A DNA stretch of 55,958 nucleotides, from NCBI GenBank assembly GCA_963575745.1, contig CAUYUJ010000122.1:62001-117958 (forward strand), written 5' to 3'. A model generated the notes under the pieces. The model had not been told where the DNA came from. It saw only the letters and a program-made list of their open reading frames with translations, and did no database searches. Positions 17,486 through 53,235 of the stretch are shown here, piece by piece. This stretch comes from Prorocentrum cordatum. Taxonomy: Eukaryota. The first letter of the stretch is position 1. Each line of letters starts with the position of its first letter. The translations under genes and the position numbers were made by a program.

Positions 17486-17689
17486 CAGAGGAGGGCGTGC
17501 AGAGATGATGGAGATATGCCAAAGGATGCGGTGGGAAGTGGGAAGATCGTTTCTCACAATCGTGGCTGGCCCCCGAGGGCTGGCGCACTGCCACGGGCGA
17601 GTGGGCCCGAGGCTAGCCCCCCCTCGCCCTCCTCCTCCTCCTCCTCCTCCTCGTCCTCCTCGTCCTCCTCCTCCTCCTCCTCCTCCTTC

Positions 17690-17711
17690 TCCGTAGCCAT
17701 TTTGGCTCAAG
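17690..17711 (+). other. Perfect dinoflagellate spliced leader exon at the 5' end of a retrotransposon
   Basis: TCCGTAGCCATTTTGGCTCAAG matches DCCGTAGCCATTTTGGCTCAAG at 22/22. It is followed by ATG rather than an SL-RNA GT donor. Confidence 0.95.
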
Positions 17712-17857
17712 ATGTCTGACTGGGGGGGCTGCGAGCCTCCAGGCAGAAAGGATACCGCTAGTCCGCGGCCAGCCTACCGTCTTACTGTGAGCTCCTGGGG
17801 GAGCGCCATCCGCTTAATCTACTTGATTGCCGCGGCGGCGCTGGGGAGCAGTGCAGG

Positions 17858-19042
17858 ATGGCAACCAGGCGGCCCTTTTGGGCTGCAGGCAGCGGCGGCG
17901 GCAGCAAGACGCCACGCGGCGGTCCAGTCGGCAGCGGCAACGTGCGTGACAAGCCCGACTGGTTCTGCTGCAAGGACGGCTGCAAGACTGCAAAAGGCGA
18001 GCGCTGGTGGAACCCAGGCTCGTCGATGCGGTGTACAAAATGCAAGTTGCACAAGGGCGCCTGTTTCGGCAGCAATCGACCTGCTGGTGGAGGTGCCCCC
18101 TCGGCGCGCGCGCCCAGCGTGGCAGACACGCGTGCCGAGGCAAAGTATAAGAAGATCTACGAGGACAAGATCGCGGCGCTGGAGCAAGAGCTGCGCAGCA
18201 AGTCCTCGCAGGACGGCGACATGGAGGTCGACGGTTCAGCAGTCGAGGCCCCAGCTGCAGGCGCCGCCGCCGTGCGGAAGCGCGCCGACAAGCTGGCGGC
18301 CGAGATCAAGCTGCTCAAGGGCCGCGACGACATGGATGGCATCTGCAAGGGCGCCATCGACTCCTTCCAGAAGGAGTTGGACGAGCTGCGGAAGAAGCTG
18401 CACGACGCCAAGCCCTCGGACGCCAAACTCCAGATCGCCCGACGGGACGTCAAGCGGAAGGAGGCTGCACTGGCCAAGGCAGGAGACAAGCTGGCGGAGC
18501 AGGTGGAGGCTGTCGCTGCAGCACAGCGTCGCCTGGAGGAGCTCAAGACCCAGCGGGGGCAGTGCGAGGCCGAGCTCGGCCGCGCCAAGGCCGTGGTGCA
18601 CGAGCTGGTGGCTGCTGATGCTGCTCGGGCTGGCCCAGCCGCCGACGGTGGCAGCGAGACGGGAGCGGTCGCCCACGCGTTCGGCATCAACAAGGAAGCG
18701 CTGGTGGCCAAGTGCGGGGAGGGCGGCTTCGGCGACCACGCCGAGGCGGTTTCCAAGCTCCTGGAGGAGTTGCCGCCGCAGCTGGTGGTGCCCGAGGAGC
18801 GCCCTGCTCCCCCCCCTCTGGGCGCGGCGAGCACTGCGGCCGCCCAAGCCGTGCCCAGCGCCGAAGACCCCATCGGCAAGGCATCAGAGGAGGCGCTGCG
18901 CGCCGAACTCGACAAGCTGCGGCCCTCCGACCTCGCGCCCGCCATGCCGAAGGACTTGGAGGGGATGCGCGCTGTTGCTTCTCGCCTTGCCGCTAGCCCG
19001 CTCATCGGGGCCGCAGCGCGCATGCGAGCTGAACCGTACTGA
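17858..19042 (+). CDS. Retrotransposon ORF1 protein (394 aa): RanBP2-like zinc finger plus coiled coil
   Basis: DWFCCKDGC-x8-NPGSSMRCTKC at 17960-18043; long heptad-rich region (KIAALEQELR...LAAEIKLLK...ELDELRKKL); GC3-biased codons. Confidence 0.85.
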   Translation: MATRRPFWAAGSGGGSKTPRGGPVGSGNVRDKPDWFCCKDGCKTAKGERWWNPGSSMRCTKCKLHKGACFGSNRPAGGGAPSARAPSVADTRAEAKYKKIYEDKIAALEQELRSKSSQDGDMEVDGSAVEAPAAGAAAVRKRADKLAAEIKLLKGRDDMDGICKGAIDSFQKELDELRKKLHDAKPSDAKLQIARRDVKRKEAALAKAGDKLAEQVEAVAAAQRRLEELKTQRGQCEAELGRAKAVVHELVAADAARAGPAADGGSETGAVAHAFGINKEALVAKCGEGGFGDHAEAVSKLLEELPPQLVVPEERPAPPPLGAASTAAAQAVPSAEDPIGKASEEALRAELDKLRPSDLAPAMPKDLEGMRAVASRLAASPLIGAAARMRAEPY

Positions 19043-19052
19043 CCTCGTCACC

Positions 19053-22000
19053 ATGGCGAGCCTGAGCGAGAGCAACAGCACCGTCGTCGCGCCCGACCTG
19101 GTCCAGGAGGACGCGTGGGAGGCGGAGGACGAAGCGGCCCGTCACCTCCTAGGCGAGGCGGCAACAGCTGCAGGCAGCCGCAGCGCGGCAGTCACCAGCG
19201 AGCGGGGGCTCAAGTCCCCTCCAAGGGGCACTGGGTCCCCCCTCCCACTCCAGGTCGACTGCGACTGGAATGCCGTGGCGCTGGAGCAGGCGAGGCCCGT
19301 GGAGCAGGTGGCTCCGCGCCCGCGCGGCCCTGCGGGGCAGGTGGTCTCGCGGCCGCGCTTGGAGGCCGAGGCGGCGCTGGCTGCGCTGGAGAGCGAGGCG
19401 CTGGAGCAGCCGCGGCCCGTGGGGCAGCGGGCCCCGCGCCCGCGCGGCCCCGCGGGACAGGTGGACTCGCGGCCGCGTGGGGAGGCCGAGGCGGCGCTGG
19501 CTGACCTGGAAGGAGCTGCACCACCTGCTCTTCTTGTGCATTCTGTCGTCGCAGCAGCTTCAGGCGGAGCCCGTGGTGCAGGGCCAGCGCGTCACGGATC
19601 GGTTGCCGTCGGGGCCCCTGACCAAGGGCACTCACTGTTTGGGGTCCAGGCGGGGACCGGCTATAACGACGGGGCTGCGGCCCTAAATGCCACCCCAGCC
19701 CCGATGCGTGATGGGGCCCAAGCAGCACCGCCCTACGAGATGCTGGATGGCGCCAGGGTGCCCGCAGGCCTGGTCTTCGTCGAGGGCCATGTCGAGGAGC
19801 CCCACGCGGCCCAGCAGCGCGCACGGACGGCGTCGCAGTTCGTGGACCTGGTGCTCGAGCTGATTGGCGAGATCGTGCTCTACCTCAAGCGGGTCGGCCT
19901 CCTGGCGGTCGAAGATCTCGGGTCAGACCAGCACTTCATCAAGGACACCAACTACAGCAACGCGTTCCTGCAGGTGGGGCAGGACGGGCTGCTCGACATG
20001 CAGGTCGCGTCGGAGGAGGAGCGCCGCAGGGTGCGGGTGCTCACGGCCCCCCTCCCGATCCTCCCGGCCACGCTGGAGCGGCGGAAGGCTGCGCCCGAGG
20101 TTGCGAGGGCGAAGCAGGTGGCGGAGCCCGCAGCAGAGGGTACCGACCCTTCGGGGCACGCACTGCTCACTGCGGGCCGAGCCACCAGGACGGCAGAGAG
20201 TGCCGACCCCTCGGGGCACGCACTGCTCACCGTCCGAGCTGCACGGCGGAGGGTGGCCAAGCCGAAGAAACCGAAGATAGATCACACGCTAGCCATCACG
20301 GCGAACGGCACCACGTGGTCGAGCCTCACCGACCTGCTGCTGGACGTGGAGGGGCGCCGAGCGGACATCTTCTTGGGCCAGGAGACCCATCTGTTCGGCG
20401 CCGAGGCGTGCGCGACTCAGGAGGACTGGGCGAAGCGAGCCAAGTGGAACCTGCAGCTGGACCCAGCAGTACCCACAGGACGTGGAGGCACCAGCGGCGG
20501 CTTGTGTATGGCAGCGCAGCCGTGGCGAGGGCTGGCGAGCTACCCATGTGTGAGCACGAGGTTCAGCATCGCACGTGGCCGAGTACAGCTGAGATGTTGG
20601 AAAGGATGGCTTCCAGGAGGCGTGGTAGTGGCCAACGTCTACCTGCACCACAGCGAGGGCATGACGGACAGGAACAGGCTCCTGGTCAACCTCCTCGCAC
20701 GCGAGCTGAAGCGCCTGGCTCGGCCTTTCATCATCGGCGGCGACTTCAACATGCACCCCACGGAGCTGGCCAAGTCAGGGTTCTTCGAGAAGCTGATGGC
20801 CGAGCCGATCTTCACCCAGGAGGCAACGCTCGGCGACTTGGCGGAGGGCTCCGTGCTGGACTACTGGGTCCTGCCGAAGGCGCTCGTGCCGAGGGTCGAG
20901 TCCTGCTTCGTGATTCACACCACCACCATCAAGGATCACCGCCCAGTTGGGCTCAGGCTGAAGAACGGTGCGATAGAGGACACGATCACGGTCCACAAGA
21001 CCCCCGCCAGCTTTCCAACTACACGGCCCATCGGGCCTGGTCGGGAGGTGGTTACATCCTGGGGTGCGGCAGTGGCGGCCCTGGGGGAGACGGAGGGCTG
21101 TCAGGAGGCCTTGGCGAACGGGTTCGCGGCCTTCATGAAGGGGGCGGAGGAGGAGCTGGGCAGCTTGTTCCACATCCCGCTGGATGACATGCCGAGGTAC
21201 ACGGGGCGAGGGCTGGAGCCGCGCTTCATCAAGGTACATCCCACGAGGCGGAACAACGCGGCGGTGGCCAAGGCATCCCCCGAGGCGCGCCAGGCCCTGT
21301 GGCTGCACGACCGACTCCTTGAGCTCCAGCGTGCGTACGAGAGGGGCGAGCCGAGGCACCGCCAGGCAGCGAAGCGGCTACTCGACACCCTGGAGCACTG
21401 GAACGGCTCCCTCAAGAAGGCTCAGGACTGGCACTTCTTCGAGGCGTACTGGCAGCGGCTGCGCGAGCTCACGATCGACGACCTGGCCGAGCTGGCGGAG
21501 CAGGCCCAGAGCGTGAGCGTGCGCCTCTCCAGAGACTTTGAGAGAGCGCGCTGCCGATCGTTCGACGCCTGGGCGAAGCAGGCCACGTTGAACGGGGCGG
21601 GCCTCGCCCACAAGTGGACTCGTGGGCCCGCGGGAGCGGGGCCAGGGCTGCTGGCCAACGGCGTGGCAGCGGATGTGCAGGACGCCGCCGACAAGTTCTG
21701 CGCGGACTGGCTCCAGCAGGTCTGGAACGTCCGCGAGCCCATGAAGGACACCAGCTGGGGCGAGATCAAGCACCGCGTGATGGACGCGCCCTCGGTTGAA
21801 GCCATCAGGGCCGCGAGCAGGAAGTTCAAGCATCGGACGGCCTTGGGCTCCGACGCGTTCCACCCACGGTGGTTCGCGATGCTGTCCAACGAGGCGCTCG
21901 AGTTCTTAGGCCAGCTCATGGTGTACATGGAGAGGGTCGGCAATCAGTGGAAGCAGCTGACCACCATCATCGTCTTCCTCGCCAAGAAGGAGGGCGGGGT

Positions 22001-25000
22001 GAGACCCATCGCCTTGCTAGGCGGATTCCTTCGGATATGGACAAAGGTGCGGCGGGCACAGATGCAGCAGTGGGAGGGCGAGCATGACCTGCCGTGCTTC
22101 CACAACGCGAGCGGCAGGACGGCCGAGAGGGCCGTCTGGGATCAGGCCGTCTACCAGGAGTGGGCCCTCAAGGTAGGCATGGTCACGGCCTCGAACCAGC
22201 TCGACATGACCAAGGCCTACGAGAGAGTGGGCCACCAGACGCTCTGGGACGAGGGCTGCGCGAGTGGCGCCAACCTGGTGCTGCTACGCGCTAGCATCAG
22301 CATCTATGCAGGCCCACGGCGGTGCAAGGTAGACGGCGCGGTCTCGTGCGTGGTCGAGCTGGCCTGCAGCATCTTGGCGGGTTGCGGCTTCGCGACATCA
22401 TGGCTGAAGGTCCTCATGTTCCGCAGCCTGCGGCTCTTTGGCGACATGTACCAGTGCATCCAGCTGTCCGCCTTCGTCGATGACATCACCGTCCTCTGCG
22501 TCGGGTCGCAGCGCTTCCTGCTCAAGGTAGCGGCGGACGGCTTGCAGTACCTTATCGAGCTCCTCCGCAAACTGGGCTTTGAGGTCAACGGCTCGAAGTC
22601 CACCATCGTGATCACCTCGGCGTACGCTGGCAAGTGGATCGCAGACAGGGTGTACACGCACACGGCGCAGCGGATCCAGGTAAAGCAGCACCACCGCAAC
22701 CTGGGCGTAGACTCGATGGTGGGGACGAAGCGGCGCACCAAGGTCATGGACGCGAACTTCGACAAGCAGCGGCGCCGCCTTGGACGGGTCACGTGCCTCA
22801 AGCGCCAGGGCGCCGAGTCGGGCAAGGTGGGCAAGATGGGCATGCAGCCCGCCATGACGTATGGCACCAGCGTGCCCGGCCGCAGCGACTCGCGGTTGCA
22901 CAAGATCAGGGCGGCGGTCGGCGCAGCGATGTTCACCGACACGGCGAGACGCTCGCTCACGCTGTCCTTCATGCTGGAGAGGGGCAAGCAGGACCCAGCC
23001 TACGCCGTCAACGCGGCGCCGCTGGTGGAGTGGGCGAAGGCGGTCTGGACCAAGCGCATCCCCACCCACATTCTCCAGGGAGCCCTGGACCGAGCCGAGG
23101 CGACTCAGAGGAACAAGCTGCGCCCACGGGCCGCCGTGGTCGGACCAGCGGGTGCGATGCTTGCCACGGCCAGGAGGATAGGCTGGCAGGTTGTCTCCGC
23201 CAGCCGGTGGATCTCCCACGACGGCGAGGGGCTGGAGTTGAGCGAAAGCGTGGGGCCACGGTCGATCAAGGGATTGCTAGATTCAGCCATTGTGAAGTGG
23301 CAGTATGCTCAGATAAGTGCGCATGAGGGGCTGGATCACCTTAAGGACGGCATCCACCTGGAGCCAGTGCGCGAGGTCATCCGCAACCTCGAGAAGCACG
23401 GCCTGAAGCAGGAGGCGCGCGGCTTGCGCTCCACCGTCATTGGGGCGCAGTGGCCCCAGCAGCAGCTGCACGACGAGGGCCTTGCCGACTCCCCACTGCG
23501 CCAGCGCTGCGGCGAGGCCCCTGGCACGCTCCCTCACCGCCACGGTGCATGTGTGGCGTGGGCGCGTGAGCGCAGGGAGAGCGAGATCGGCCAGGTCCAC
23601 TTCCCCGAGGGCGCGCTCACCGCGCTGCAGCAGGCGTTCTGGGGCAGGTGCCTGCTGCCCAACTGGACCGCGGGGCCGAGGCCGTCGCGAGCGTGGCACA
23701 CGGTATGGGGCATAGAGGTGCCAGGAGGTTTCTTCATGGACGACGGCTTCGTGGACGGATCGGGACGCTGCCTCGCAGGCCCAGACGACATGCGGGTGGG
23801 CTTCGGCTGCGCGTCAGTGGACCACCTCGGGCGGGTCACGGGAGCGTGCCACGGGCCGTCTCCTGGCTGGCTGCAGGAGGTGGGCGAGGGCGAGCTCTTC
23901 GCGGTGGAGGCCATGCTGCAGCACGCCGTTCCCCCGTTCACCGTCTACAGCGACTACCAGGACCTGCTCGACGGCATCGCCGCAGGGCCAGCTGCTTGCT
24001 GCGCGCCTGGCAAGGCCTATGCCGAGCAGTGGAGGAGGATCTGGCGGCTCATCCAGGACATCGGGCAGGACCAGCTCCAGTTCCGCAAGGTCAAGGCTCA
24101 TCAGGACATCACCCAGCTCGCCTACGGCTCGGTGGAGCGCCGCCTCGCGCTGGGCAACAACGCCGCCGACTCCGAGGCCAAGATGGGAGCGGCCTGCCAT
24201 CCATGCAGCTCTCAGGTCGAGGCGGAGCGCTTCGCCTCACAGCAGGAGGCAGTGGGGCGCATGGCGGGCTGGGTGGGCCAGGTGTGCGCGCTAGCCAACG
24301 GCGGCCCGAGGGACGCCACGGGCAAGCAGCTGCTGACGAGGGCCCCGCGGCACGAGGAGCAGCACGGCATGGTGCGTGCCAAGCGCCGCCGTACGCAGCC
24401 ACGCGGGCAGCCGAGGCCCGTGCCCAGAGGAGTCGACGCGATCCCGATCACGGATCACGACGACCGCGATGGCGACACCAGCGGAGGCAGGTCGCCCCAG
24501 CGCGGGCCTGCGGTGCTGGCGGCGGCGGCGCTCGCGGCTGCAGGCTGGAGTACTGGCCTGGCGGGAGGCTCCGACGACGAGCCCGACGGCGAGGGCCTGG
24601 CCCAGCGTGGTGGCGGAAGCGGCAGGGTCGCAGCAGACCATGCGCCGCCCCGCTGGGCCCAGCAGCTGGCGACGAGGCAGGCATGCGGCGGCGACCCCGA
24701 CGGCATGGCGGACGGTGGCGGGTCACCGACACCAGAGGGCGGCTGGGCAGCGCTGGACGCCCAGCAGGGCGGCCAGGACAGCGGCAGGCAGGCCGTCCAC
24801 GGTGGTGAGGACAGCGACGACGCGCCGCTGATGCAGCCGCCCAGGAGACAGGCGCCCCCCCGCAGGCAGCAGCTCTTCACAGCGAAGGGCGTGCTGGCTC
24901 GAGGCGGCGACAAGCGGCCCCGCGAGGCCGAGGCGCGGCAGGCAGCGCAGGAGGCGGGCAGCAGCCAGGCGGATGGCAGGACCGCCAGCCAGGACGGCGT

Positions 25001-25481
25001 CGGTCGCCGTGTGGCGGCGAGGATGCAGCGCGAGCGCGGGCCACAGCTCTTCATGCCCGACGACGTAGGCAGCGCGGAGGGTCAGCCGCTGCGGCGCCGC
25101 TCGCAGTGGGTCGGCAGCACCAGCGCATTGCCGTTCGCATGCGACCGCTGCGGGGTGCGCTGCAGGGGCCGCGCCCAGCTGGAGGCGGGGCTGTGCCGCG
25201 GGACGCCTGCCGCTGTGCTGGCGGCCGACGCGTCGCACCGCCTGATGACCATGGGCGACGTGGTGTTCTGCTGCTCCTGCGGGGCAAGGACTGGAGGAGG
25301 TGCGGCCATCCTGCTGGCGGAGAAGTGCCTGGGGAAGGTCGCCAACAGCACGGCTGGCACAAGGCTGAACAGGATGAAGGCGGGGAAGCACCCGCTCACG
25401 GGCCGCCTCATCGGCGAGCCCGTCCCGCTGGTGGCGCGCGACGAGGCGGCCCCAGCGGGGGCGGCGCTGACGACGGCGTGA
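19053..25481 (+). CDS. Retrotransposon ORF2 polyprotein (2142 aa from ATG 19053): APE endonuclease, reverse transcriptase, RNase H, Cys-rich C-terminus
   Basis: APE motifs ITANG, GQETH, NVY, IIGGDFN, LDY, DHRPV (~20290-20960). RT motifs KKEGGVRPIALL, LDMTKAYERV, FVDD (22473-22484), NLGV. RNase H motifs FVDGS, GELFAV, VYSDY, KVKAH, GNNAADSEAK (~23745-24183). The start is inferred from the ATG 10 nt after the ORF1 stop; the frame is open back to ATG 17712. Confidence 0.93.
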   Translation: MASLSESNSTVVAPDLVQEDAWEAEDEAARHLLGEAATAAGSRSAAVTSERGLKSPPRGTGSPLPLQVDCDWNAVALEQARPVEQVAPRPRGPAGQVVSRPRLEAEAALAALESEALEQPRPVGQRAPRPRGPAGQVDSRPRGEAEAALADLEGAAPPALLVHSVVAAASGGARGAGPARHGSVAVGAPDQGHSLFGVQAGTGYNDGAAALNATPAPMRDGAQAAPPYEMLDGARVPAGLVFVEGHVEEPHAAQQRARTASQFVDLVLELIGEIVLYLKRVGLLAVEDLGSDQHFIKDTNYSNAFLQVGQDGLLDMQVASEEERRRVRVLTAPLPILPATLERRKAAPEVARAKQVAEPAAEGTDPSGHALLTAGRATRTAESADPSGHALLTVRAARRRVAKPKKPKIDHTLAITANGTTWSSLTDLLLDVEGRRADIFLGQETHLFGAEACATQEDWAKRAKWNLQLDPAVPTGRGGTSGGLCMAAQPWRGLASYPCVSTRFSIARGRVQLRCWKGWLPGGVVVANVYLHHSEGMTDRNRLLVNLLARELKRLARPFIIGGDFNMHPTELAKSGFFEKLMAEPIFTQEATLGDLAEGSVLDYWVLPKALVPRVESCFVIHTTTIKDHRPVGLRLKNGAIEDTITVHKTPASFPTTRPIGPGREVVTSWGAAVAALGETEGCQEALANGFAAFMKGAEEELGSLFHIPLDDMPRYTGRGLEPRFIKVHPTRRNNAAVAKASPEARQALWLHDRLLELQRAYERGEPRHRQAAKRLLDTLEHWNGSLKKAQDWHFFEAYWQRLRELTIDDLAELAEQAQSVSVRLSRDFERARCRSFDAWAKQATLNGAGLAHKWTRGPAGAGPGLLANGVAADVQDAADKFCADWLQQVWNVREPMKDTSWGEIKHRVMDAPSVEAIRAASRKFKHRTALGSDAFHPRWFAMLSNEALEFLGQLMVYMERVGNQWKQLTTIIVFLAKKEGGVRPIALLGGFLRIWTKVRRAQMQQWEGEHDLPCFHNASGRTAERAVWDQAVYQEWALKVGMVTASNQLDMTKAYERVGHQTLWDEGCASGANLVLLRASISIYAGPRRCKVDGAVSCVVELACSILAGCGFATSWLKVLMFRSLRLFGDMYQCIQLSAFVDDITVLCVGSQRFLLKVAADGLQYLIELLRKLGFEVNGSKSTIVITSAYAGKWIADRVYTHTAQRIQVKQHHRNLGVDSMVGTKRRTKVMDANFDKQRRRLGRVTCLKRQGAESGKVGKMGMQPAMTYGTSVPGRSDSRLHKIRAAVGAAMFTDTARRSLTLSFMLERGKQDPAYAVNAAPLVEWAKAVWTKRIPTHILQGALDRAEATQRNKLRPRAAVVGPAGAMLATARRIGWQVVSASRWISHDGEGLELSESVGPRSIKGLLDSAIVKWQYAQISAHEGLDHLKDGIHLEPVREVIRNLEKHGLKQEARGLRSTVIGAQWPQQQLHDEGLADSPLRQRCGEAPGTLPHRHGACVAWARERRESEIGQVHFPEGALTALQQAFWGRCLLPNWTAGPRPSRAWHTVWGIEVPGGFFMDDGFVDGSGRCLAGPDDMRVGFGCASVDHLGRVTGACHGPSPGWLQEVGEGELFAVEAMLQHAVPPFTVYSDYQDLLDGIAAGPAACCAPGKAYAEQWRRIWRLIQDIGQDQLQFRKVKAHQDITQLAYGSVERRLALGNNAADSEAKMGAACHPCSSQVEAERFASQQEAVGRMAGWVGQVCALANGGPRDATGKQLLTRAPRHEEQHGMVRAKRRRTQPRGQPRPVPRGVDAIPITDHDDRDGDTSGGRSPQRGPAVLAAAALAAAGWSTGLAGGSDDEPDGEGLAQRGGGSGRVAADHAPPRWAQQLATRQACGGDPDGMADGGGSPTPEGGWAALDAQQGGQDSGRQAVHGGEDSDDAPLMQPPRRQAPPRRQQLFTAKGVLARGGDKRPREAEARQAAQEAGSSQADGRTASQDGVGRRVAARMQRERGPQLFMPDDVGSAEGQPLRRRSQWVGSTSALPFACDRCGVRCRGRAQLEAGLCRGTPAAVLAADASHRLMTMGDVVFCCSCGARTGGGAAILLAEKCLGKVANSTAGTRLNRMKAGKHPLTGRLIGEPVPLVARDEAAPAGAALTTA

Positions 25482-42443: not shown

Positions 42444-43848
42444 TAGCCGCTGCGCTCGTTCCGCCGGCCTGTATTATGCCATCGCTGGCGTTTGCTTGCG
42501 CGTTCGCGGCTCGTGCGGCGCTGCGCCTGGCGCTGGCCTTTTTTTTCCGGATGCGCTGCGACAGCAGGCATGCCGGCGAAGTAGTTGCTTTGGAGCTTGT
42601 CGTGGGGGTTCTGGCCTCTGTTGTCCCGCCGCCATGCCTGGGTTGTGGGTCAGAGTCTTCAGGGATGCTTCTTGGGGTCTCTTCGGGGCGCTCTTGGGGT
42701 CGTCTAGAGGGCAGTTTTGGGACCTCTTGGGAGCCTCTTGGGAACCTCTTGGGAGCCTCTTTGGGTCCTCTTGGGCCTTCCTGGAGGCCTCTTGGGGGCC
42801 GTCTTAGGGGCCCCTTGGGGATTCCTGGGGGCTTCATGGAGCCGAGGGCTCGAAATGTTCGCTCGGGTCCCCCGTCTGGGCTCCCTCTTGGAGCCGGCTT
42901 CGGGGCCTCTTGGGCCATTTTTGGAAGCCTCTTGAGCCGTTTTGGGCCCTCTTGGGTCGTCTTGGGGCCCTCTTGGAGTCCTATTCGGCCGTGTTGGGGC
43001 GATCTTGGGGGCCTCTGGGGCCGTCCTGGAGTGTCGGGCGGCCGAAAAGGCGAGAACGCCAACATGTTTCAGACACTGGAGGAACGTAACAATTTTGGCC
43101 TCTTGGGGGCCTCTTGGGAGTGCTCTTGGAGGCCTCTGGGGGCGTCTTGGAGACCTTGGGCCGTCTGGCGGCCGTCTTGGGCGTCTTGGAGTGATCTTCG
43201 AGCGTCTCGGACCCTTCTTGGAGCGTCTTGAGAGCCTCTTGGGGCTCTCTTGGCCCGCCTTGGGGCGGCTCCAGGAGTTGCGGCATCTTTGACGCGAACG
43301 TCCAAGGAGTGTCCCGGGAGTGTCTCGGGGTATTGTTAGACCAGGGACCCCAACGGGCTGCCACAGACGCGCGAACTAGAAATATTAGAAATCTGCTGCC
43401 AGAGATCGTGGCACGGCTCCGGCCCGTTGGATCGGCGAATTTTGGAGCAAGGCTTCGCTTCGGGATGAGAAGCTTGCAGGATGGAGGCAGCACGCCCGCG
43501 GGGGGGGCCTTGCCGGATCACCTCGCGGCCCGGCAGCCCCAAAATACCTCCACCTCCCGCCGGGGCTCCCGGGCGGGCGCGCGGGGCCGTGGCGGCGTGC
43601 CGATGCTGAGGTCCTGCTCCTGAGGGGGGAGGGCGGCTGCTGCTGCTGCTGCTCCTGGTTCTCCTCGTCTTCGCCACCTCCGTCGCCAGAACTCAGTCGT
43701 CGCCGTAGTCGCCGTAGCCGCCGCCGCCGTCGCCCGTCGTGGTCGCCGTCGTCGCCGCCGTCGTCGTCGTCGTCGCCGCCGCCCTCCGCCGCCGCCGCCG
43801 CCCTCCGCCGCCGCCGCCGCCATCGCCGTCGCCGCCGCCGCCGCCGTA

Positions 43849-43922
<74 letters not shown>

Positions 43923-43951
43923 TGACATAGCCCCCTGCTTTTCCTTCCGTC

Positions 43952-43973
43952 TCCACAGCCATTTTGGCCCAAG
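43952..43973 (+). promoter_or_regulatory. Relic DinoSL (19/22) and predicted trans-splice acceptor upstream of a retrogene
   Basis: TCCACAGCCATTTTGGCCCAAG, preceded by the pyrimidine tract CCCCCTGCTTTTCCTTCCGTC and located 73 nt before ATG 44047. Confidence 0.85.
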
Positions 43974-44046
43974 TCGCTGCAGCATTGCCTAAGGCGCCCT
44001 GTAGTGCTTCCGTGCCCCTCTTGCGCAAGAGCAGGACGCAGGGTGC

Positions 44047-45708
44047 ATGGCGACGGTGGAGGATCGCTTGGCCGCGGTGGAGGCGCAGCTGGCGGCGCTG
44101 TCGGCCAGCGCGGGCGACGCAGAGGCTGGTGGCAAGAAGCCTGGCTCTGCGGGCAGCAGCGACGCACAGATTCTGAAGAAGGTGTCGACGAGGTTGCAGG
44201 ACTTCGAGGCCCAGCTCACGGCCCAGCTGAGCAACATGCAGAGCGACTTTGACAAGAAGCTCTCGCACGTGAGTCGCGGCGCCTCCTCGATGAAACCGCT
44301 CGACGCGGGCGGGCAGTCCGCGGGCATGGACACCATGGCCGAGGACTTGGACCAGCTCAAATTCGACGTTGGTGAGCTCAAAGATCTCCTGAACAACAAC
44401 AAGGGCGAGGTCAACCACGTCCGCCGCATCGTGCTGGCTTGCGAGCGCGACATGGAGGACTTCACTGCTGCCATGGATGCTGTCAACGTCGACTTGGACG
44501 AGATGCGTGCGCGCGTGGATGCCACGCACTCCATCATTACAAGCCGCCAGCGCGTGGAGGCCACCATGACAGCTGAGATCTCCACCATGAGGCTGGACAT
44601 CGGTGACATTCAGGAAGCCCTCAAGAACCATGACTCTTGGATGGAGGATGTTTCAAACACCCTGCAGCAGATGCAGGAGAAGGAGGAGAACTTAACGGAG
44701 GACATCATCAACCTGAAGAACGAGATGAACACCAAGCTCGACACGAAGGTGGACAACGTGGCCTGGAAGGAGGCTAACGACGACCTGGACGCGGCGGTCA
44801 AGACCGTGAGAGACATGGTCTCCTCCCTGCGACTCGACGTGGACGCGCGTCGCCGGAAGGTGGACGAGATTCTCGCAACGATCAGGCACGATATTACGGC
44901 CGTCGAGACCAACCTGGAGGAGTCGAAGGCGAAGATCACGAGCGACACCGACCAGGCCGTGAACGCGCTCAACGGCAGGATCGATTTCACCAACAAGGAT
45001 CTGGCAGCCACCCAGGAGAGCCTGCACACCACGCAGAACTCGCTCAGTGACTGCTTCAACGAGGTGGCCGTGGTCAGGAGCGACCTGGAGCGCAACGTGG
45101 CCGACACCGAGGCCCGCCTCAAGAACGACGTGCGTCAGAAGCAGCAGGAGGCTTTCGAGAAGATCGCGTCGGTGGAGCAGCAGGCCGAGCTCCGCAGCGC
45201 CGAGGCCTCGCGCCGCCTTGGCGCGCTGGACCTGCGCATGAGCGGCGTGCAGGGTGGCCTCGGGGAGCACAAGCGCGACATTCTGAAGCTGCGCGAGGAG
45301 GTCAACGGCCTCACTGTCAAGAGCGCGTCCCACGAGGTGGACATCCAGAAAAACAGCGACGCCATGCGCAAGATGGAGAAGCAGCGCAACATGGACGAGC
45401 AGAACTGGAAGGCGCAGATGGACGCCGTCCACGATGTGCTGGACACCAAGGTGAACGAGAAGCCGTTCGAGGACCTCAAGCACTGCACGGCCTCGCTCAC
45501 CAAGGGCGTGGTCAAGTTCGCGCAGGTCGTCGGCGTCTTCCCCGGCCCCAAGTTCGACGACGCGGATGGCGGCGACCAGGGCGAGGCGGACGTCGAGCTG
45601 CTGGGCTGGGAGGAGTGCGCGGAGAACATGTCCTTCCGCGTGGACAAGGCGTGGCGCCAGAGGTGCTCGCAGCGCTTCCGCAACGTGCTGGACATGGTTG
45701 CCAAGAAG
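44047..45708 (+). CDS. Exon 1 (554 codons) of an uncharacterised long coiled-coil protein, retrogene-derived
   Basis: Uninterrupted GC3-rich heptad-repeat ORF. Coding character stops abruptly after ...LDMVAKK at AAG|GC. Confidence 0.88.
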
Positions 45709-45852
45709 GCTCAGCGTGAAGCAATGGGGGTCCTGAGGGCTCCGAGGGTTCTGAGGGCAAGGGGTTCTGAGGATTCTGAGCGTTCTGAGGGTTCTGAAGC
45801 GTCCCGGGGTCCGGGGCCCGTTTTTCTGCTGTGTCGGGCCCTCGGGCCCTTA

Positions 45853-46095
45853 GTGGGCCCCGGAAGCGGCAGGGCCGTTTTTTCACCGCTTCCGAAAAAC
45901 TGTCCCTTGAAAATGGAAACGGCGAAAAAACAGCGACCTGAAACGGCAACAAAAACGGCCCCAGGGTCGGACCCGGAGCCGAAACCGGCCAAAAAACGGC
46001 GACGGAACCGGAAGAAAAAAACGGCGCTGGAAGCGGCAACAAAAACGGCAAAACGGAACCGGTAACAAAACGGCCCTGTCGTTTCCAGGGCCCAC
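45853..46095. mobile_element. TA-flanked MITE (~36-bp TIR) inside predicted intron 1
   Basis: TA|GTGGGCCCCGGAAGCGGCAGGGCCGTTTT...AAAACGGCCCTGTCGTTTCCAGGGCCCAC|TA. Confidence 0.8.
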
Positions 46096-46396
46096 TAAGC
46101 CGTCTGACCAGCTTCTTGGAACGGCCAACGTCGAACGACGGCACCGCTCACCTCTTCTCTGCCTCTGTCCAGTTGCAGGGAAGGGGCAGTGAATCGGGCG
46201 ACGAAATCTATACATACCCACTGCTCCCTGGCCAGGCTCATCCTGAACCCACGAGCTGTGTATACGCCCTCCTGGCCAAGCCAGGAGGGCGTGGCGTATG
46301 CACCGCTGCTGGGTTCAGGCTGGGCCTGGCCAGGGAGCACTGGATAAGTACAGACTTCGTCGCCCCAGTGAAGGGGCCCCTCGTGCCGGGCCTAAG

Positions 46397-46441
46397 GCGG
46401 ACCACAGCGTGCTGCGCCTGCTGCAGATCTCCCAGCAGCAC
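46397..46441 (+). CDS. Predicted exon 2 (ADHSVLRLLQISQQH)
   Basis: AAG|GCG acceptor; an in-frame GC3-rich island continuing exon 1. Its 3' boundary is non-canonical. Confidence 0.65.
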
Positions 46442-47028
46442 AGCCGGGAGGGCGAGCTGCGCACGCGCGCGCGAGCCTTGGACGTCCACGGGCGGCCTCT
46501 CCCCCCCAGGAGGAGGAGGAGGGAGGAGGAGGAGGAGGAGGATGAGGAGGAGGAGGAGAGGGAGGATGCAGGGGGAGGGAGGAGGAGGAAAGAGGAAAGG
46601 AGGAAAGAGGAAAGAGTAATAGGAAAAAGAGGAAAGAGGAAAGAGGAGAGGGAGGAGGAGGGAGGAGGAGGGGAGGAAGGATGAGGAGAGGGGAGGAGGA
46701 GAGGAGAGGGAGGAGGATGAGATCGGAGGATCGGAGGGAGGAGGAGGAGGAGGAGGATGAGGAGGTGGAGGAGGAGGGAGGGAGAGAGAGGGAGGAGGAT
46801 GAGGAGGAGGCCTCTGCGCTGGGGGTCTGGCTGTGCGCCTCCGTCGCGCGCGCAAACCAAAGTCGCTCGAGCGCCCCGCGCGAGGGCCAGGGAGTGGGTT
46901 CGCGCGCGGGGAGGGGCGGCAGCGGTCATGCGCTGGCGGAGGAGCCGTCCGTGGACGCCCGAGCGTTGGTGTCGTTGCTCCCCTCGGGAGGTCTCCAGAG
47001 GTCTGCCGAGGTCTCCGGAGATCCCTCG

Positions 47029-47234
47029 GATGCGGGCAATATTTTCATCCATATCCAGTGCGTCTTGGACTTTCTCGGAAGGGGCGCCGCAAGGCCGAGG
47101 CGCACTGGGTATGGATAAACATTGAGGCTTTGGGAGGCAGATTGTAATTCATATCCAGTGCGCCTCATGTTTCTCGGGAAGAGAGTCCGAAACTCCAAGA
47201 CGCACTGGATGTGGATCAAGACATTGCCCGCATC
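47029..47234. repeat. Foldback structure: ~41-bp outer inverted arms plus inner inverted copies of ATCCAGTGCG
   Basis: GATGCGGGCAAT...ATCCAGTGCGTCTTGGA versus TCCAAGACGCACTGGAT...ATTGCCCGCATC. Confidence 0.8.
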
Positions 47235-47356
47235 GGAGGCCTCTGCGGAGGTCCTCGGATGCCTCCAGAGGCCCGAAGAGGGCGAAGATCGCGCGAGAAC
47301 CTCGATCCGCGAGTTTCCGAGGTTCATTTGCCTGTGCGCTTCTCTGCCCTCCTGAC

Positions 47357-47458
47357 GTCGAGTCGCAGCTGGAGCGCGTCAAGCACGAGCGCGAGCTGTG
47401 GAAGGAGGTGGTGGAGCGCCGCCAGCAGCAGCCGATGCAGCTGGCACTGGGCGCGAAG
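47357..47458 (+). CDS. Predicted exon 3 (VESQLERVKHERELWKEVVERRQQQPMQLALGAK)
   Basis: GC3-rich helical peptide continuing exon 2; ends at an AAG|GA donor. Its 5' boundary lacks AG. Confidence 0.65.
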
Positions 47459-47463
47459 GAATC

Positions 47464-47495
<32 letters not shown>

Positions 47496-48168
47496 CGACG
47501 GACGACCCACGACGGACGAACGCCGACGATGCTCGGCGCGGATGAAAGGGAGCGGCTGAGAATGCGGGGGTGCAAAGTCTGCTACGCGCAGCCCGTTTCG
47601 GCGCCCCCCTTCGCCAGCAGGCGCTGGAGAACCGGTTGCACGCAGCTGATTCGCGAACCCCCACTCGACTGCCGTCGGCCACTTTCGTCCACCCCGAGAC
47701 GACGACGACCTCCCTGTACCTCCCTGGACCTGTCCCAGGACGCGTTCTGACCGGAGTACCCTGCACGGTTTCCCCAGGGGCCGTAGGCGACCCGAGGAGG
47801 AGGAGGATGAGGAGGAGGATGAGGAGGTGGAGGAGGGGGAGGGGGATGAGGAGATGGAGGAGGAGGGAGGAGGAGGAAGGAGGAGAAGCAGGAGGAGGAG
47901 GAGGAGGAGGAGGAGGAGAAGAAGGAGGAGGAGGGAGGAGTAGGAGAAGGAAGAGGAGGACGAGTCGCCTAAGCCCTTCAGAGAAACCCTCCAGAGTATC
48001 CCGGAGGCTCCAGCCGTGGCCGCGAAAGAGCCTAGATCCTCGACCTTCAACAGCGACGACGATCAGACGTGCCGACCTGGGGGGCGGGGGTCGGCCCAGG
48101 GGGAAACGTTGACCCCGAATCACCACCGCATCGCCCATCTGCGCCCTGGGGCCCCGCTCTGCTCATCT

Positions 48169-48479
48169 AGGCCGGAGTGGATGGGGTCGGAGGACCGCGC
48201 CGCATCGCCGATGCATCGGCGATGCGGCTCGATGTGGAGCCCGATCTTCTCCACGCCGACGTCGCCGATGCGGCGCGATGCTCCGACCCATGTGCTCCGA
48301 CCCCATCCAGGAAGGAGTAGGGGACCACATGCGAACCCTACCCCTACCCCCCACGACTTCTGAGGGGGAGGGAGGGGTTCATTTCGCTCGGGAGCTCCCG
48401 AACGGAATGAACCCCACCCTCCCCCTCGGAAATCGTGGGGGTTAGGGGTAGGGTTCGCATGTGACCCCCTAAGGAGGCC
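48169..48479 (+). mobile_element. MITE family B copy with a hairpin element nested near its right TIR
   Basis: Family B interior at 48169-48312; terminal GGAGGCC at ~48473-48479 follows the nested element. Confidence 0.6.
48320..48469. mobile_element. ~150-bp fully palindromic hairpin element, TA-flanked; second copy at 50124-50277
   Basis: Arms pair along the whole length around the centre GGGAGCTCCC. Confidence 0.85.
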
Positions 48480-48983
48480 TGTAGCGCAGGGACCTGAGGC
48501 TCCGCCCTTCGGCAGCCGCTCGCCGATGCATCGGCGACATGTCACACCACCCGGTCCACGTCAGGCTGCCCTTCCCCGTGCCGGCTCCCCAGGGCGAGGA
48601 GGAGGAGGAGGAGGACGAGGAGGAGGACGAGGAGGAGGAAAGGAGGAGGAGGAGGAGGAGGAGGAGGAGGAGGAGGACGAGGACGAGGAGGAGGGTAGGA
48701 GTGAGGAGGAGGAGGAGGAGGGAGGAGGAGGAGAGAGGAGAAAGACGAGGAGGAGGACGAGGACGAGGACGAGGAGGAGAAGGAGGACGAGTAGGAGGAC
48801 GAGGAGGGGACGGGGAGGAGGAGGAGGAGGAGGAGGAGGACGAGTGAGGAGGAGGACGAGGAGGAGGAGACGGAGGAGGAGGGAGGACGGAGGACTACGA
48901 CGACGACGACGACGACAACCGAGAACGATCAAATGCCTCGATCCTCGACATCGGCCTGAAAATCTCGGGCTTCGCACGCGGTA

Positions 48984-49154
48984 TCGATCACCTTTCGGGC
49001 TTTCTTTTCTGTTTGTTTTATTTACTTTTGTTTTCTTGTTTTCTTATCTTAACTCTATTCTCTTTTTTTGTTATTTTCTTTTTTTTTTTATTTTTCCTTT
49101 TCATTTTATATTTTCTTGTTCTTTTTTTTTTCTATTTTTTCGATCACCTTTCGG
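48984..49154 (-). mobile_element. Degenerate poly(A) insertion (T-rich on +) with 15-bp target-site duplication
   Basis: TCGATCACCTTTCGG at 48984-48998 and 49140-49154 flanks a 141-bp T-rich tract. Confidence 0.75.
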
Positions 49155-49743
49155 CTCTCCTTAGACGACGCCTTCGATCCTTCCTCACGGCGGAGGCGCG
49201 GCGCGCCGGGGGCCCACTGGCCTTCGCCCGCTTCCGGCGGACAGCTCTGCCCTGCCGCTCCGTGTGCGATGGCTGTGGGGCGGGCCGGCGGCATTCCGGA
49301 CACAGATAGCCAGATGGCGATGGGGGATCAGGACATGGGGGGCTGATCGGGCCGGGCGAAAACTGGGGGGTTGGGAAAGGGGGGTTACGAAATTTGCTGC
49401 GTGCAGCTGGTTTCGGCCTCACCGAGGGGCCCATTCCTCGATACATGGCCGCCTCCGGCGCCGGGAGGCGCCGGGAAAATCAGCTACGTGAGCTGATTCT
49501 CAACCCCCCCCTTTGCTATCCCCCCCTTTCGCCCGACCCGAGATGAGTATCCGGTACCGTTTTGTCGGGGTACAATTTGTACCTTCTTTGCGGGTTGCAA
49601 GTGCAAATTGTACCTTCTCCCCCCCCCCGTTGACATCCTCGCACATGTCGCGGATGTGGTCAAAAGTACAATTTGTACCTTGTCTGTCAGATCGCGGGCA
49701 TGCCCGGACCGGTCGATCTTCGATCGAGTCTCTGGGCCCTATA

Positions 49744-49969
49744 GGCCTCTTAGACAGGGTCGGAGCAGATGGGGTCGGAGGGTCGCGCCGCATCGCCGAT
49801 GCATCGGCGACGCATCGGCGATGCGGCTCGGCGAGGGGCCCAGTTTTCTCGACGCCGATGTCGCCGATGCACCTCCGACGTCGCAAGAGAATTGCCGATG
49901 CATCGGCGATGCATCGGCGATGCGGGGAGCTCCTCCGACCCCACCTGCTCGGCCCCCTTCTAGGAGGTC
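49744..49969 (+). mobile_element. MITE family B copy
   Basis: Same TIR architecture and internal palindromes as 4650-4876; 226 versus 227 bp. Confidence 0.8.
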
Positions 49970-50036
49970 TCGATCGTCGATCGAGGGCCCCACCTCCTCG
50001 GACCCCACCGACGGCGGCGGCGGCGGCGGCGCGAAG

Positions 50037-50087
50037 GACTCCGGCGGCGCGGGCAGCCCCCCCAGCGCCCGGGCGCTGCGCGGCTGA
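50037..50087 (+). CDS. Predicted terminal exon 4 (DSGGAGSPPSARALRG*)
   Basis: AAG|GAC acceptor inside an 11-bp repeat (GGCGCGAAGGA) identical to the exon 3 donor site; in-frame stop. Confidence 0.55.
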   Translation, partial: DSGGAGSPPSARALRG

Positions 50088-50123
50088 GGGCGGGCCCGGC
50101 GCTCCCGGCGCTCCGCTGCTTGA

Positions 50124-50277
50124 GGGGGCCAGATGCGAGCCCTGCCCCCTACCCCCCGCGATGTCTGAGGGGGAGGGGTGGGCTTCACTTCGCTCGGGAG
50201 CTCCCGAGCGAAGTGAGCCCCCCCCCTCCCCCTCGGAAGTCGTGGGGGGTCGGGGGCAGGGCTCGCAGCTGGCCCCC
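50124..50277. mobile_element. Palindromic hairpin element, copy 2
   Basis: GGGGGCCAGATGCGAGCCCTG...GGGAGCTCCC...CAGGGCTCGCAGCTGGCCCCC. Confidence 0.85.
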
Positions 50278-51183
50278 TATAGTTCTGCGCCCGCCGACCT
50301 CACGGGGCGGTGCGGGCGGACTGGAGCCTCACCCTTGCGGGCTCCAGTGCCGACAGGACTCCAGGCGAGGAGGAGGCACCCACACCGCTGCCCTGCGCGC
50401 CCGGTCTTCCCCTTTCTCGGTCCTTCTGGGGGGCCCTCGTCGCCACCGCTGGGACCCGCCTCGGAATCCCGATCAGAAGGCACACCGGGAGAGGTCCGGG
50501 GAGTGGCGGTATGGGTAGTTTCTCCAGGAACCTCACCCTTGCGGGCTCCAGCTCCGACGAGACTGGCGGCGCGCGAGGGGGTGGGAGGGCGCTGGGGGTG
50601 GGCGGCCCCCTGAGAGGGGGAGGGGGTTCTTATAAGGCATGGGCATGGTCAGAACGCTCTTTGAGGCCGAGAGGCCTCAGAGACAGGCTGGGCTTCTAAG
50701 AACCTCTTTGTCGTCTCAGAAGCCCACAGCCCTCTAAGAAGGCAGCACCCCCCTATCGCGCCCTCCCCCCTGGGCGGGCTGCATTTCCTGGGAGTCTGGG
50801 ATGTTTAGTTCCGCATCGGCCCTGGGCCGCATATTCTTGGTCGAAGCCAGGCCCAATCCCGCTGGGTCCCGCCTCATCTGGCTTCATCCCGCCCACGCCG
50901 ACTTCATCTGCTAGCTGGTTCGTATCGGCTCAATCTGGCTTGGCAGCTTCTCATGCGGGCTGAAGACGTTTCAGTTTCGCCGACGAAGAGACCTCCCAGG
51001 AGTTGCGCGCCACCCATCCTGTGCTCGCCGCCAGCGCTAATCTTCAGTCATCCGAGCTGGCCCGACCTCTGCCCAGGGTCCGACCGAAAGCTGGACGGAC
51101 CCGGGGCTTCTCGCTTGCGGGCGCGCGTGGCCGAGGCCGTGGTGCTGGGAGCGGCGGCTCCGCAAAACGCCTGCTCCTGCTGC

Positions 51184-51236
<53 letters not shown>

Positions 51237-53235
51237 CTGCTCCTCCCTCCGTCTCATCCTGCTCCTCGACGTCCTCCGTCTCATCCTGCTCCGCCTCAAC
51301 TTTCTCCTCCTCCTTCTCCCGCTCATCCTCCTCCTCTGTCCTCCCTCCATCCTTCTTCCCCCTCTTCCCTGCTTCCTGTTGTCTCCTGGCAGCCTGCCCA
51401 ATATGCCTCCTTCTTGGCATCCTCCGTATCCTCAATTTCCTTATTCCGCTCCATCTCCTCATCCGTCTTCGTTCCACTTTCACACAGCATCCTCGTAGAG
51501 CGTAATCTTAGCATACAATTTACTCACTTCGTGTCCTCCTTCTCCTCCTCCTCCTCCTCCTCCTCCTCTTCATCCTCCTCCTTCTCCTCCTTCTCCTCCT
51601 CCTCATTTTTTTTCGGTTGCCCTTGCCCCGATTGCATCGCCCACTACTTCAAGTGCCCTCGCAGCCGTCGTCCCTCGTTGCCCCATTCTCGGCATCGGAC
51701 TTTGATCTCACGCGTGAACATACAGTCCTAAGTTTTGTTTTAGCTTCTATATCAGAAACATAGCTAAGGAAGTGGGCGTGAAGCAAGATGGATCGCCTCT
51801 CGCGCTCCTGCAGCAGCCTGATGTAGTGAAAGCTGCACAGGCTGAAATGCCCAACGGCAAATCTCTGCTTCCTCCTCTGCCTGACGCTGCTCGGCCTTCA
51901 AGGTGGCTGAAACCAGCAGCTCGTCGACGAGTATCGTGTGACATCGAACCCATCATGACGCTGGTGCTCCTCCTCCTCCTCCTCCTCCTCCTTCTCCTCC
52001 TCCTCCTCCTCCTCCTCCTCTCCTCCTCCTCCTCCTCCTCCTCCTCCTCCTCCTCCTCCTCCTCCTCCTCCTCCTCCTCCTCCTCCTCCTCCCCCTCCCT
52101 CTCTACGCTGGGCTCCTCCTCCTCCTCCGAGGCCGTCACCGCGCTCGGAGAGGCCACCTTCAGGCCGCTCGCGGCACAGGCGGGCCCAGACAGAGAGCGC
52201 GCGGGGAAGCCCGGGCGCGCGGCAGGCGAAGCGCTCGGGGAGCAGAGGGCGACCGGCCGCGCGCCGCTGCCGGCGGATGCCGAGGCGGAGCCAGACAAAG
52301 TCCGGTAGGCATGGCGTCGAGGACATCGCCGAGGGCACGTGGCGAACCCAGACCCCCGACGTCGGGATTTTTGTTGCAACGTCGACCCCCCCAGAGGTCT
52401 GGACTCTCCTTCCCCGGGACCGGCTTTTCTCATCCCGAGTCGGTTTGTGACGGTCCCGAGGCCCAGGAAGGGCCCCTGGAGGCCGAACGTAGCGAAACAC
52501 ATGCGTGGCTTTTTTTTCTCACAGCGCGAGGGGGTCTGGGAGGCCAGGCCCAGCTCGAGCTCGAAGAGGCGGGGGCGGTGAAGCTGGCGGGCTCGGCCGC
52601 ACCGCTGGCCGCAGGGCGCCGCAGGGCGGCGCAGGGCCCGGCCTCCAGGGCCAGGGGGCGGCAGAGGCGTGCAGGGCCCGGGTGGCGGCCGGCGCGCGAA
52701 GGGCCGTACGAGCGGCCGGCGGCCGAGGGCGGAGGGCCGCGGCGGCGCGCCTGCTCGCTGTCAGGCTGGGCAGGCCGACCTCGCGGGCACCCTTGGCCAG
52801 CCCCTCGCTGCACACGCGCCCGCGCCCGCGTGCACTGGGCGGCTCGAGCCCCACGCCTGGCCTCGAGGTAGCTTGGCGCGCTTCACCCCAGGCCTTCGTT
52901 CGCGCGGCGGCCCTGGCCAGCTCGCGGCGCCTCGCCGACGCCCCAGCGAGGGGCACCTCGTCGGGGTCCCTCTGGCTGGGCTCGGGTATGGGGCCAGGAC
53001 GAGGATGCAGCCCCTTCCAGAGCGTTCCGGCTCTGAGCAGGCCGCGGCGCCCGGTACATCCTCCTGAGCCGCCAGAGCGCAGGGATCCCCGACCTATCCC
53101 CACCCCAACTTGTCCTCGTCCCCGCTCCGTCTCGTGCGGGGCCCACCCACGGAGGGGACGATCGGGGCCCTGCAGTGGCACGGCCCCCTCCCCGACCGGC
53201 CACGGCTCGGGTTAAGTCGGGCGTGTCACCCTATA

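Follow-up and report, generated by a model that had tools for sequence, protein, structure and literature searches.

We analysed a stretch of 55,958 nucleotides (nt) from the dinoflagellate Prorocentrum cordatum (contig CAUYUJ010000122.1, positions 62,001 to 117,958; hereafter the window), in which a relic of the dinoflagellate spliced leader (SL; DinoSL) stands in front of a protein-coding gene with a long intron-free first exon and three introns crowded into its 3′ end. A preliminary description had read this gene as a retrogene that was re-acquiring introns. As set out below, the relic is genuine and the introns are real, and we tentatively favour a reading in which the introns were inherited rather than regained. 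The relic, the leader, the 1662-nt intron-free exon and the three short exons behind it all lie where that description had placed them, as follows:

43823 to 43922, forward strand: (TCG/GTC)n microsatellite just upstream of the relic (Tandem Repeats Finder, period 3, 33 copies)
43953 to 43973, forward strand: DinoSL relic, CCACAGCCATTTTGGCCCAAG, 18/21 identical to the DinoSL consensus
43974 to 44046, forward strand: leader (5′ untranslated region, UTR), 73 nt from relic to ATG, read from the sequence and covered by RNA contigs of runs X5 and X8 that begin at 43960
44047 to 45708, forward strand: coding part of exon 1, 1662 nt or 554 codons, an intron-free open frame with its ATG at 44047 (translation P0001)
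45709 to 46396, forward strand: intron 1, 688 nt, GC..AG|G, phase 0, AAGGC at both borders (RNA joint)
46397 to 46442, forward strand: exon 2, 46 nt, ADHSVLRLLQISQQH plus the first base of an Ile codon (tblastn E 3e-5; spanned by RNA contigs)
46443 to 47357, forward strand: intron 2, 915 nt, phase 1, GC..CG in this DNA, without a border repeat (RNA joint in 4/4 runs)
47358 to 47458, forward strand: exon 3, 101 nt, (I)ESQLERVKHERELWKEVVERRQQQPMQLALGAK (tblastn E 2e-14; covered by RNA contigs)
47459 to 50036, forward strand: intron 3, 2578 nt, GA..AG|G, phase 0 (homology, coverage bins)
50037 to 50087, forward strand: coding part of exon 4, DSGGAGSPPSARALRG, stop codon at 50085-50087 (homologue tails; covered by RNA contigs)
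50108 to 50287, forward strand: 3′ UTR stretch with a hairpin like those of miniature inverted-repeat transposable elements (MITEs), arms 50123-50278 (RNA contigs, hairpin search)

Gene product and family

The product of the gene is a coiled-coil protein, highly conserved among dinoflagellates, whose function is unknown. Its exon 1 translation, P0001, is 100% identical to the unnamed P. cordatum gene model P0002 and about 90% identical both to metatranscriptome proteins of 620-633 amino acids (aa) and to Symbiodiniaceae models, and 332 proteins matched it at E <= 1e-3 among 8000 candidates scored. No Pfam family exceeded its cut-off for P0001, which gave weak coiled-coil-type matches only; a PDB search returned a single match (E 0.04) and nothing useful for function, and an ESM Atlas search returned unnamed clusters only. 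The window gene belongs to a small P. cordatum family whose members are nearly identical.

Exons 2 and 3 were located by tblastn of the full-length homologue P0004 against the window. The joined coding sequence (CDS) comes to 1860 nt, or 619 aa plus a stop codon, in agreement with the product of about 619 aa predicted earlier. Indeed, this product is colinear with its homologues through to the stop codon, and exon 4 ends in ...SARALRG*, as do many homologues. The closest mRNA that we found, L032 (96.5% protein identity over exon 1, 89% DNA identity), reads ...MQLALGAKD...SARALRG*, and its GAKD supports the predicted K|D junction of intron 3. A weak, colinear tblastn pair at 51751-51903 (E 0.9 each) was considered as a possible degenerate intron-less C-terminal fragment, and was rejected as chance: 297/1000 shuffles did equally well at the nucleotide level and 10/1000 at the protein level, for a region chosen post hoc.

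Splicing of the three introns

RNA evidence came from Logan contigs of four runs (X1, X5, X8 and X16) laid on the region. These runs are transcriptome-like, with zero depth in all of them over unique intron stretches (for example, 47589-47805). Their contigs derive mostly from sister copies or alleles and none is assignable to this exact copy; the window's own letters at 44178, 44274 and 45351 were seen in 0/4 runs. mRNA contigs align to exon 1 unbroken up to 45710/45711. For intron 1, one X1 contig provides a joint at 45705->46394, which with its five ambiguous letters is equivalent to the predicted junction 45708/46397 (GC..AG), and loose ends in X5, X8 and X16 match the same junction, joining exon 1 ends to exon 2. 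The borders of intron 2, for which the preliminary description gave no positions, follow from the joint 46442->47358, which was found in 4/4 runs with no ambiguity and restores CAC A|TC GAG, that is H-I-E, exactly as in homologues. No joint was listed for intron 3, where 47455-47507 was masked as repeat and one joint was dropped in X16; its junction 47458/50037 is instead predicted from homology, with coverage bins consistent with an end of exon 3 before 47589 and a start of exon 4 after 49975. The three 3′ introns are real spliceosomal introns.

The SL relic and its use

The relic carries the 17-nt SL core with one mismatch, the DinoSL consensus being DCCGUAGCCAUUUUGGCUCAAG (PMC6050394). When up to three mismatches were allowed, this core matched twice in the window against 0.13 expected, and 2/100 shuffles gave at least two matches; the window's other match is a perfect 22-nt SL at 17690-17711. 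Transcripts carry the relic as well. An X5 contig begins with 21 letters of genuine SL and then continues with window sequence from 43960, and an X8 contig likewise begins at 43960. Seven letters differ between these 5′ contigs and the window, and they therefore come from a sister copy or allele. The structure of the X5 contig indicates that the mature mRNA consists of an SL and what is left of the relic after trans-splicing at an AG within it. Therefore, the SL relic is genuine and part of the mature 5′ UTR, and its internal AG (43957-43958) is likely the present-day trans-splice acceptor.

Orthologues were drawn from a scan of metagenome contigs, which gave 68 loci, mostly intron-less mRNA contigs and several genomic ones. 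The 17-nt core (at most three mismatches) was present in no 5′ UTR of the mRNA contigs among these loci, and the two matches found elsewhere lay in L065 and L066; the one at L065:3289 (14/17) is inside an intron. By eye, many orthologue mRNA contigs begin with a partial SL, and the 5′ UTRs of L005, L015, L030 and L034 hold internal (G)CTCAAG pieces, three in a row in L015. These internal pieces are suggestive of a gene that has been recycled repeatedly in several lineages.

An SL-headed retrotransposon in the window

The perfect SL belongs to what looks like an intact retrotransposon of the long interspersed nuclear element (LINE) type, judged by its reading frame and domains, whose copies carry the SL. 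At 17690-25481 (forward strand), the SL (17690-17711) is followed directly by an ATG (17712) and an unbroken frame of 2589 codons, which contains Exo_endo_phos and RVT_1 domains, both over their Pfam cut-offs. An SL at the head of LINE copies implies that the LINE mRNA was trans-spliced before reverse transcription, and thus that SL-capped RNAs are reverse-transcribed in the P. cordatum genome. It is plausible that this LINE is the source of the enzyme that recycles SL-capped mRNAs.

Border repeats and terminal hairpins

The preliminary description had proposed that duplication of an AG|G site supplied both donor and acceptor. The repeats on which it relied are present: AAGGC stands at both borders of intron 1, and a perfect 11-bp repeat, GGCGCGAAGGA, stands at 47450-47460 and 50028-50038 around intron 3. 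As a null for such repeats, AGG sites of the window were paired at distances of 200-5000 nt and identical letters were counted in register. With an AGG of the exon 1 coding sequence as donor, at least 5 nt were shared by 4223/14066 pairs (30%), a rate that makes the AAGGC of intron 1 unremarkable, whereas at least 11 nt were shared by only 9/14066 (6e-4); among all AGG pairs, microsatellites included, the latter figure was 5083/208465 (2.4%). When the 40 nt on either side of donor and acceptor were aligned locally, intron 1 was equalled or bettered by 347/2000 shuffles, intron 2 by 271/2000 and intron 3 by 15/2000. Border repeats of 1-5 nt were measured in the 17 introns resolved for a related orthologue. 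The 11-bp repeat of intron 3 is thus a real outlier, and the only border repeat over chance. A target-site duplication above chance is found for intron 3 only, intron 1 being at chance level and intron 2 having none.

Intron 2 is of another kind. The exon before it ends in CA and the one after it begins with T; the acceptor (47356-47357) is CG, so that there is neither an AG nor a +1 G. The proposed AG|G duplication consequently fits one intron in three, namely intron 3. Intron 2 instead has terminal inverted repeats, at 46447-46464 and 47334-47352, whose score was reached by 16/5000 shuffles; its first and last 30 nt are predicted to form a duplex of -40.2 kcal/mol against -23.7 +/- 4.2 for shuffled sequence (3/1000 shuffles equal). 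Terminal inverted repeats were not found for intron 1, where 2967/5000 shuffles reached the score, and the termini of intron 3 lack both true inverted repeats and poly(A) and show only the periodicity of (GAC)n and (GGC)n microsatellites.

All three introns contain MITE-like hairpins and trinucleotide arrays, in line with the earlier statement that they are filled with MITEs. Intron 1 holds a 9-nt tandem repeat (45728-45797) and two MITE-like hairpins (45849-46099 and 46196-46365), intron 2 holds (AGG)n (46508-46810) and a hairpin (46981-47282), and intron 3 holds (CGA)n, two (GAG)n arrays, a T-rich tract and MITE-like hairpins at 48178-48309, 48318-48471 and 49743-49970. Two of the hairpin families have further members in the window, at 4645-4886 and 50123-50278, the latter belonging to the same family as 48318-48471. 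No second copy of any intron terminus was found in the 56-kb window.

Intron positions in other dinoflagellates

Related genes are intron-rich where exon 1 of the window gene has no introns. The genomic contigs L060 and L068 match the mRNA L034 at 96-100%, and L034 is in turn 94% identical to a Durusdinium trenchii model. Comparison of the two contigs with L034 placed 17/18 junctions, so that the homologous 1344 nt hold at least 17 introns, about 1 per 70 nt; the window has none there. All of the resolved Durusdinium-like introns (17/17) have G[T/C/A]..AG borders, and 10/34 AGG sites of this orthologue are occupied by introns. At the unplaced junction (L068:1346-2823 against L034:1130-1136) five mRNA letters are unaccounted for; it may represent a micro-exon or an odd border.

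At the 3′ end, the exon of genomic contig L065 ends in ...RNILDMVAKK and is followed by a GC-donor intron at the exact codon boundary of window intron 1, and the D. trenchii model P0044 reads through right after VAKK. From these alignments, the position of intron 1 appears to be common to the window and other dinoflagellates, a coincidence that independent gain would produce about 30% of the time. The preliminary description had itself named shared positions beforehand as telling against regain, and for intron 1 the position is shared. In other Symbiodiniaceae models, departures from the conserved sequence follow QLE, EREL, VVER and QQQP and do not coincide with introns 2 and 3, an indirect sign that the nearby Symbiodiniaceae introns lie elsewhere.

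Origin of the 3′ introns

We propose that an SL-capped transcript was reverse-transcribed and that the resulting recycled cDNA became the ancestor of the window gene, an origin that accounts for the relic, 73 nt from the ATG, and for a first exon of 1662 nt that contains no intron. Today, a new SL would be trans-spliced at the relic's own AG. All three introns would be of insertion origin, later invaded by MITE-like hairpins and microsatellites: in intron 3 the 11-bp border repeat, resembling a target-site duplication, would hold both splice sites (AG|GA), and in intron 2 the hairpin-forming terminal inverted repeats would point to an introner- or MITE-like element. The template may have been a pre-mRNA that was already trans-spliced and had lost its 5′ introns while its last introns were still in place; alternatively, a copy with introns may have been converted by the cDNA in its 5′ part only. 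Either course would directly explain the clustering of introns at the 3′ end. That the 3′ introns were inherited in one of these two ways is the history to which we lean, at a little under even odds, and we infer the order of events.

Several observations bear on this order. P. cordatum genes have a mean of 9.8 introns per 2798-nt CDS (PMC10666404, Table 2), from which about 5.8 introns would be expected in exon 1, with a Poisson probability of about 0.003 for none; the absence of introns where about 5.8 are expected fits a cDNA origin. The same origin is favoured by the 17 or more introns that the Durusdinium-like orthologue has in the corresponding stretch, and by the SL-headed LINE as a sign that this genome reverse-transcribes SL-capped RNAs. 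All three introns fall within the last 198/1860 coding nt (the last 11%), which uniform gain would produce with a probability of (198/1860)^3, or about 1.2e-3. Intron gain in Symbiodinium has been put at about 1 per kb per unit dS (synonymous divergence) by Roy et al. 2020 (10.1101/2020.10.14.339549), and by rough inference this rate, at a relic divergence of 3/21, predicts well under one gain in 1.86 kb. Furthermore, SL-relic genes proved as intron-rich as other genes in Song et al. 2017 (PMC5585692; 16.74 versus 17.1 introns in S. minutum), who also described retrogenes that kept introns of the parent and suggested that retroposition takes place before splicing has finished; a 2018 review by Song et al. 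(PMC6050394) states the same on retroposition with introns. In light of the normal intron numbers that Song et al. report for relic genes, the premise of the preliminary description that a retrocopy starts intronless proves to be an assumption. Its retrogene, with real introns of apparent insertion type, stands, but gain after retroposition is disfavoured by the 3′ position of the introns.

Some of the data weigh against inheritance, and much of the same evidence favours the opposite history, in which the retrocopy was intronless and all three introns were gained later in the Prorocentrum lineage at AG|G proto-splice sites, the duplicated target serving as donor and acceptor, with MITEs arriving afterwards. 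Neither a poly(A) remnant of the retrocopy nor a target duplication flanking it was found. The shared position of intron 1 is a weak argument given the roughly 30% chance of coincidence for an independent AG|G gain, and introns 2 and 3 were not seen at the same positions in the Symbiodiniaceae models compared. The perfect 11-bp repeat of intron 3, with its AG|GA, and its GA donor fit a young intron, GA donors being enriched in recently gained introns according to Roy et al. 2020, whose introner classes 13 and 14 take both splice sites from an AGGH duplication. P. cordatum introns have been reported to be enriched in introner elements, and the gain rate in this introner-rich species may far exceed the Symbiodinium figure. 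An SL relic with an intron-free exon 1 is likewise what later gain would leave behind. However, later gain has to place three events in the last 11% of the CDS, and its mechanism covers 1/3 introns, the AAGGC of intron 1 being at the level of chance (30% of AGG pairs) and intron 2 having no border repeat, AG or +1 G. It must also contend with the intron 1 position common to L065 and P0044, and no other copy of the intron termini in the window puts a mobile family in evidence. On balance, we consider later gain less likely than inheritance, and improbable at roughly one chance in a handful.

A mixed history is slightly less probable still. Here intron 1, and perhaps intron 2, would be inherited, as the shared position of intron 1 would have it, and intron 3 would be a later insertion with an 11-bp target duplication, made through LINE-type target-primed insertion, a Mutator-like (MULE-like) transposon or double-strand-break repair. 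LINEs produce target duplications of variable length, and the intact LINE in the window could have made one. The perfect repeat, GA donor, large size and nested repeats of intron 3 would all agree with such an event, and its 11 nt lie outside the 1-5 nt of the 17 related-orthologue introns. Yet repeats of up to 11 bp have been reported as general in dinoflagellate introns, so that length alone does not date the intron; its termini show neither true inverted repeats nor poly(A), and an extra event is required beside two existing introns. A different kind of doubt, to which we give appreciable weight and only somewhat less than to inheritance itself, is that this copy is a silent or splice-defective duplicate, the CG acceptor of intron 2 being a mutation or base-calling error and the RNA junctions stemming from sister copies with AG. 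The three window letters seen in no run would then be expected, as would transcripts that have no 3′ UTR MITE and diverge after 50354, and non-AG acceptors are very rare, all of the 17 related-orthologue introns ending in AG. All four exons, however, are open and conserved, exon 1 ends of the window type are joined to exon 2 in X1, X8 and X16, and the RNA runs may be from other strains, for which allelic differences are expected. A silent copy would in any case concern expression only and is compatible with any of the histories above.

Relation to known intron and retrogene systems

Retention versus regain of introns in SL-tagged retrogenes is an open point, on which Song et al. favour retention and work on introners shows massive gain. 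The locus offers a clean test case, with a dated tag in the form of the relic, a long intron-free exon and three 3′ introns with three different border signatures. The combination of an SL relic and real introns in one gene is already known, and each element, including border repeats and duplications that supply splice sites, has been described before. Recycled cDNAs, or DinoSL-relic retrogenes, were reportedly described by Slamovits and Keeling in 2008. As in the DinoSL-relic retrogenes treated in PMC5585692 and PMC6050394, the relic of the window gene lies just upstream of the CDS and is present in mature mRNA behind a new SL, and, as in those genes, too, the gene is highly expressed, conserved and endowed with introns despite the relic. 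The window gene differs in having introns only at its 3′ end, after a long exon that has none, a pattern that does not appear in the consulted portions of those two papers. Parental introns would have been lost from exon 1, which has none in 1662 nt, while three introns stand at the 3′ end.

Identical repeated intron boundaries (IRIB) of 2-9 bp, or 2-11 bp in the discussion, are general in dinoflagellate introns according to Mendez et al. 2015 (PMC5032977). Introns 1 and 3 resemble these in having an AGG-containing repeat at both borders that occurs once in the mRNA, and their repeats (5 and 11 bp) fall inside the published range; intron 2 differs, with no such repeat and no AGG (0 ambiguous letters). 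The dinoflagellate introners of Roy et al. 2020 also use a target duplication to supply splice sites, and their AGGH matches the AG|GA of intron 3. However, the duplications described for them measure 3-8 nt as against 11 nt in intron 3, which in the window has no repeated family or element-borne terminal repeats, making it a candidate member only. In Daphnia, introns are reported to be gained with short flanking direct repeats through double-strand-break repair. Intron 3 may be likened to these by analogy, a short direct repeat of the target flanking the intron in both cases, although the organism is another one and the mechanism is here indistinguishable from transposon insertion.

Intron 2 is closest to the introner elements of Amoebophrya, which have terminal inverted repeats and among which non-canonical borders are common (Farhat et al. 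2021, PMC7789003). The resemblance extends to inverted repeats within 4-5 nt of both ends, to a stem that these could form to join the exon ends and to the CG border in this DNA, but the 3-5 nt border direct repeat of the Amoebophrya elements is absent or imperfect (ACA/ACG) in intron 2. Amoebophrya is a syndinian, whereas P. cordatum is a core photosynthetic dinoflagellate. It is conceivable, though we think it doubtful, that intron 2 is a hairpin-ended, non-canonical (GC..CG) intron of the introner type that is removed exactly in vivo; window-specific letters are absent from RNA at three other sites and the contigs cannot be assigned, so that GC..CG splicing is not tied to this copy. If this were true, intron excision of the non-canonical, Amoebophrya-like kind would operate in a core photosynthetic dinoflagellate as well, and pipelines limited to G[T/C/A]..AG borders would systematically miss such introns, of which the mis-spliced public model of this gene gives an example.

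Public gene models

The public model P0002 splices intron 2 wrongly, and its sequence is in error from exon 2 on. Its reading, ...QQHSRE|VAAGARQ..., comes from a GC donor that lies 10 nt further downstream, paired with the AG at 47361-47362, so that exon 3 is read in the wrong frame. P0003, a paralogue model with 95% identity, likewise shifts frame and loses the conserved sequence after ...QQHIESQLE. In the window DNA the true intron 2 junction is not G[T/C/A]..AG, and models restricted to those borders therefore cannot place intron 2. If such junctions are common, large dinoflagellate gene sets carry a systematic error.

Differences among copies and flanking repeats

The copies of this gene also differ in the 3′ UTR. 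In 4/4 runs the RNA contigs pass over 50108-50287 and have 13 different letters there, and the hairpin element is thus absent from sister-copy transcripts, which indicates that the copies differ and that such insertions are recent. Transcripts leave the window after 50354 and resume near 51039, skipping about 684 nt (50355-51038), and they carry a short duplication near 50324-50360. A flanking direct repeat about 7.5 kb apart (43566 versus 51110) was not significant by blastn, and the idea of a tandem unit was rejected.

A long trinucleotide array stands in front of each of the two SL sequences of the window, (CCT)n at 17630-17690 before the LINE and (GTC)n at 43823-43922 before the relic, and kindred arrays, (AGG)n and (GAC)n, occur within the introns of the gene. 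The arrays beside the SLs may be tails or insertion scars of retro-insertions.

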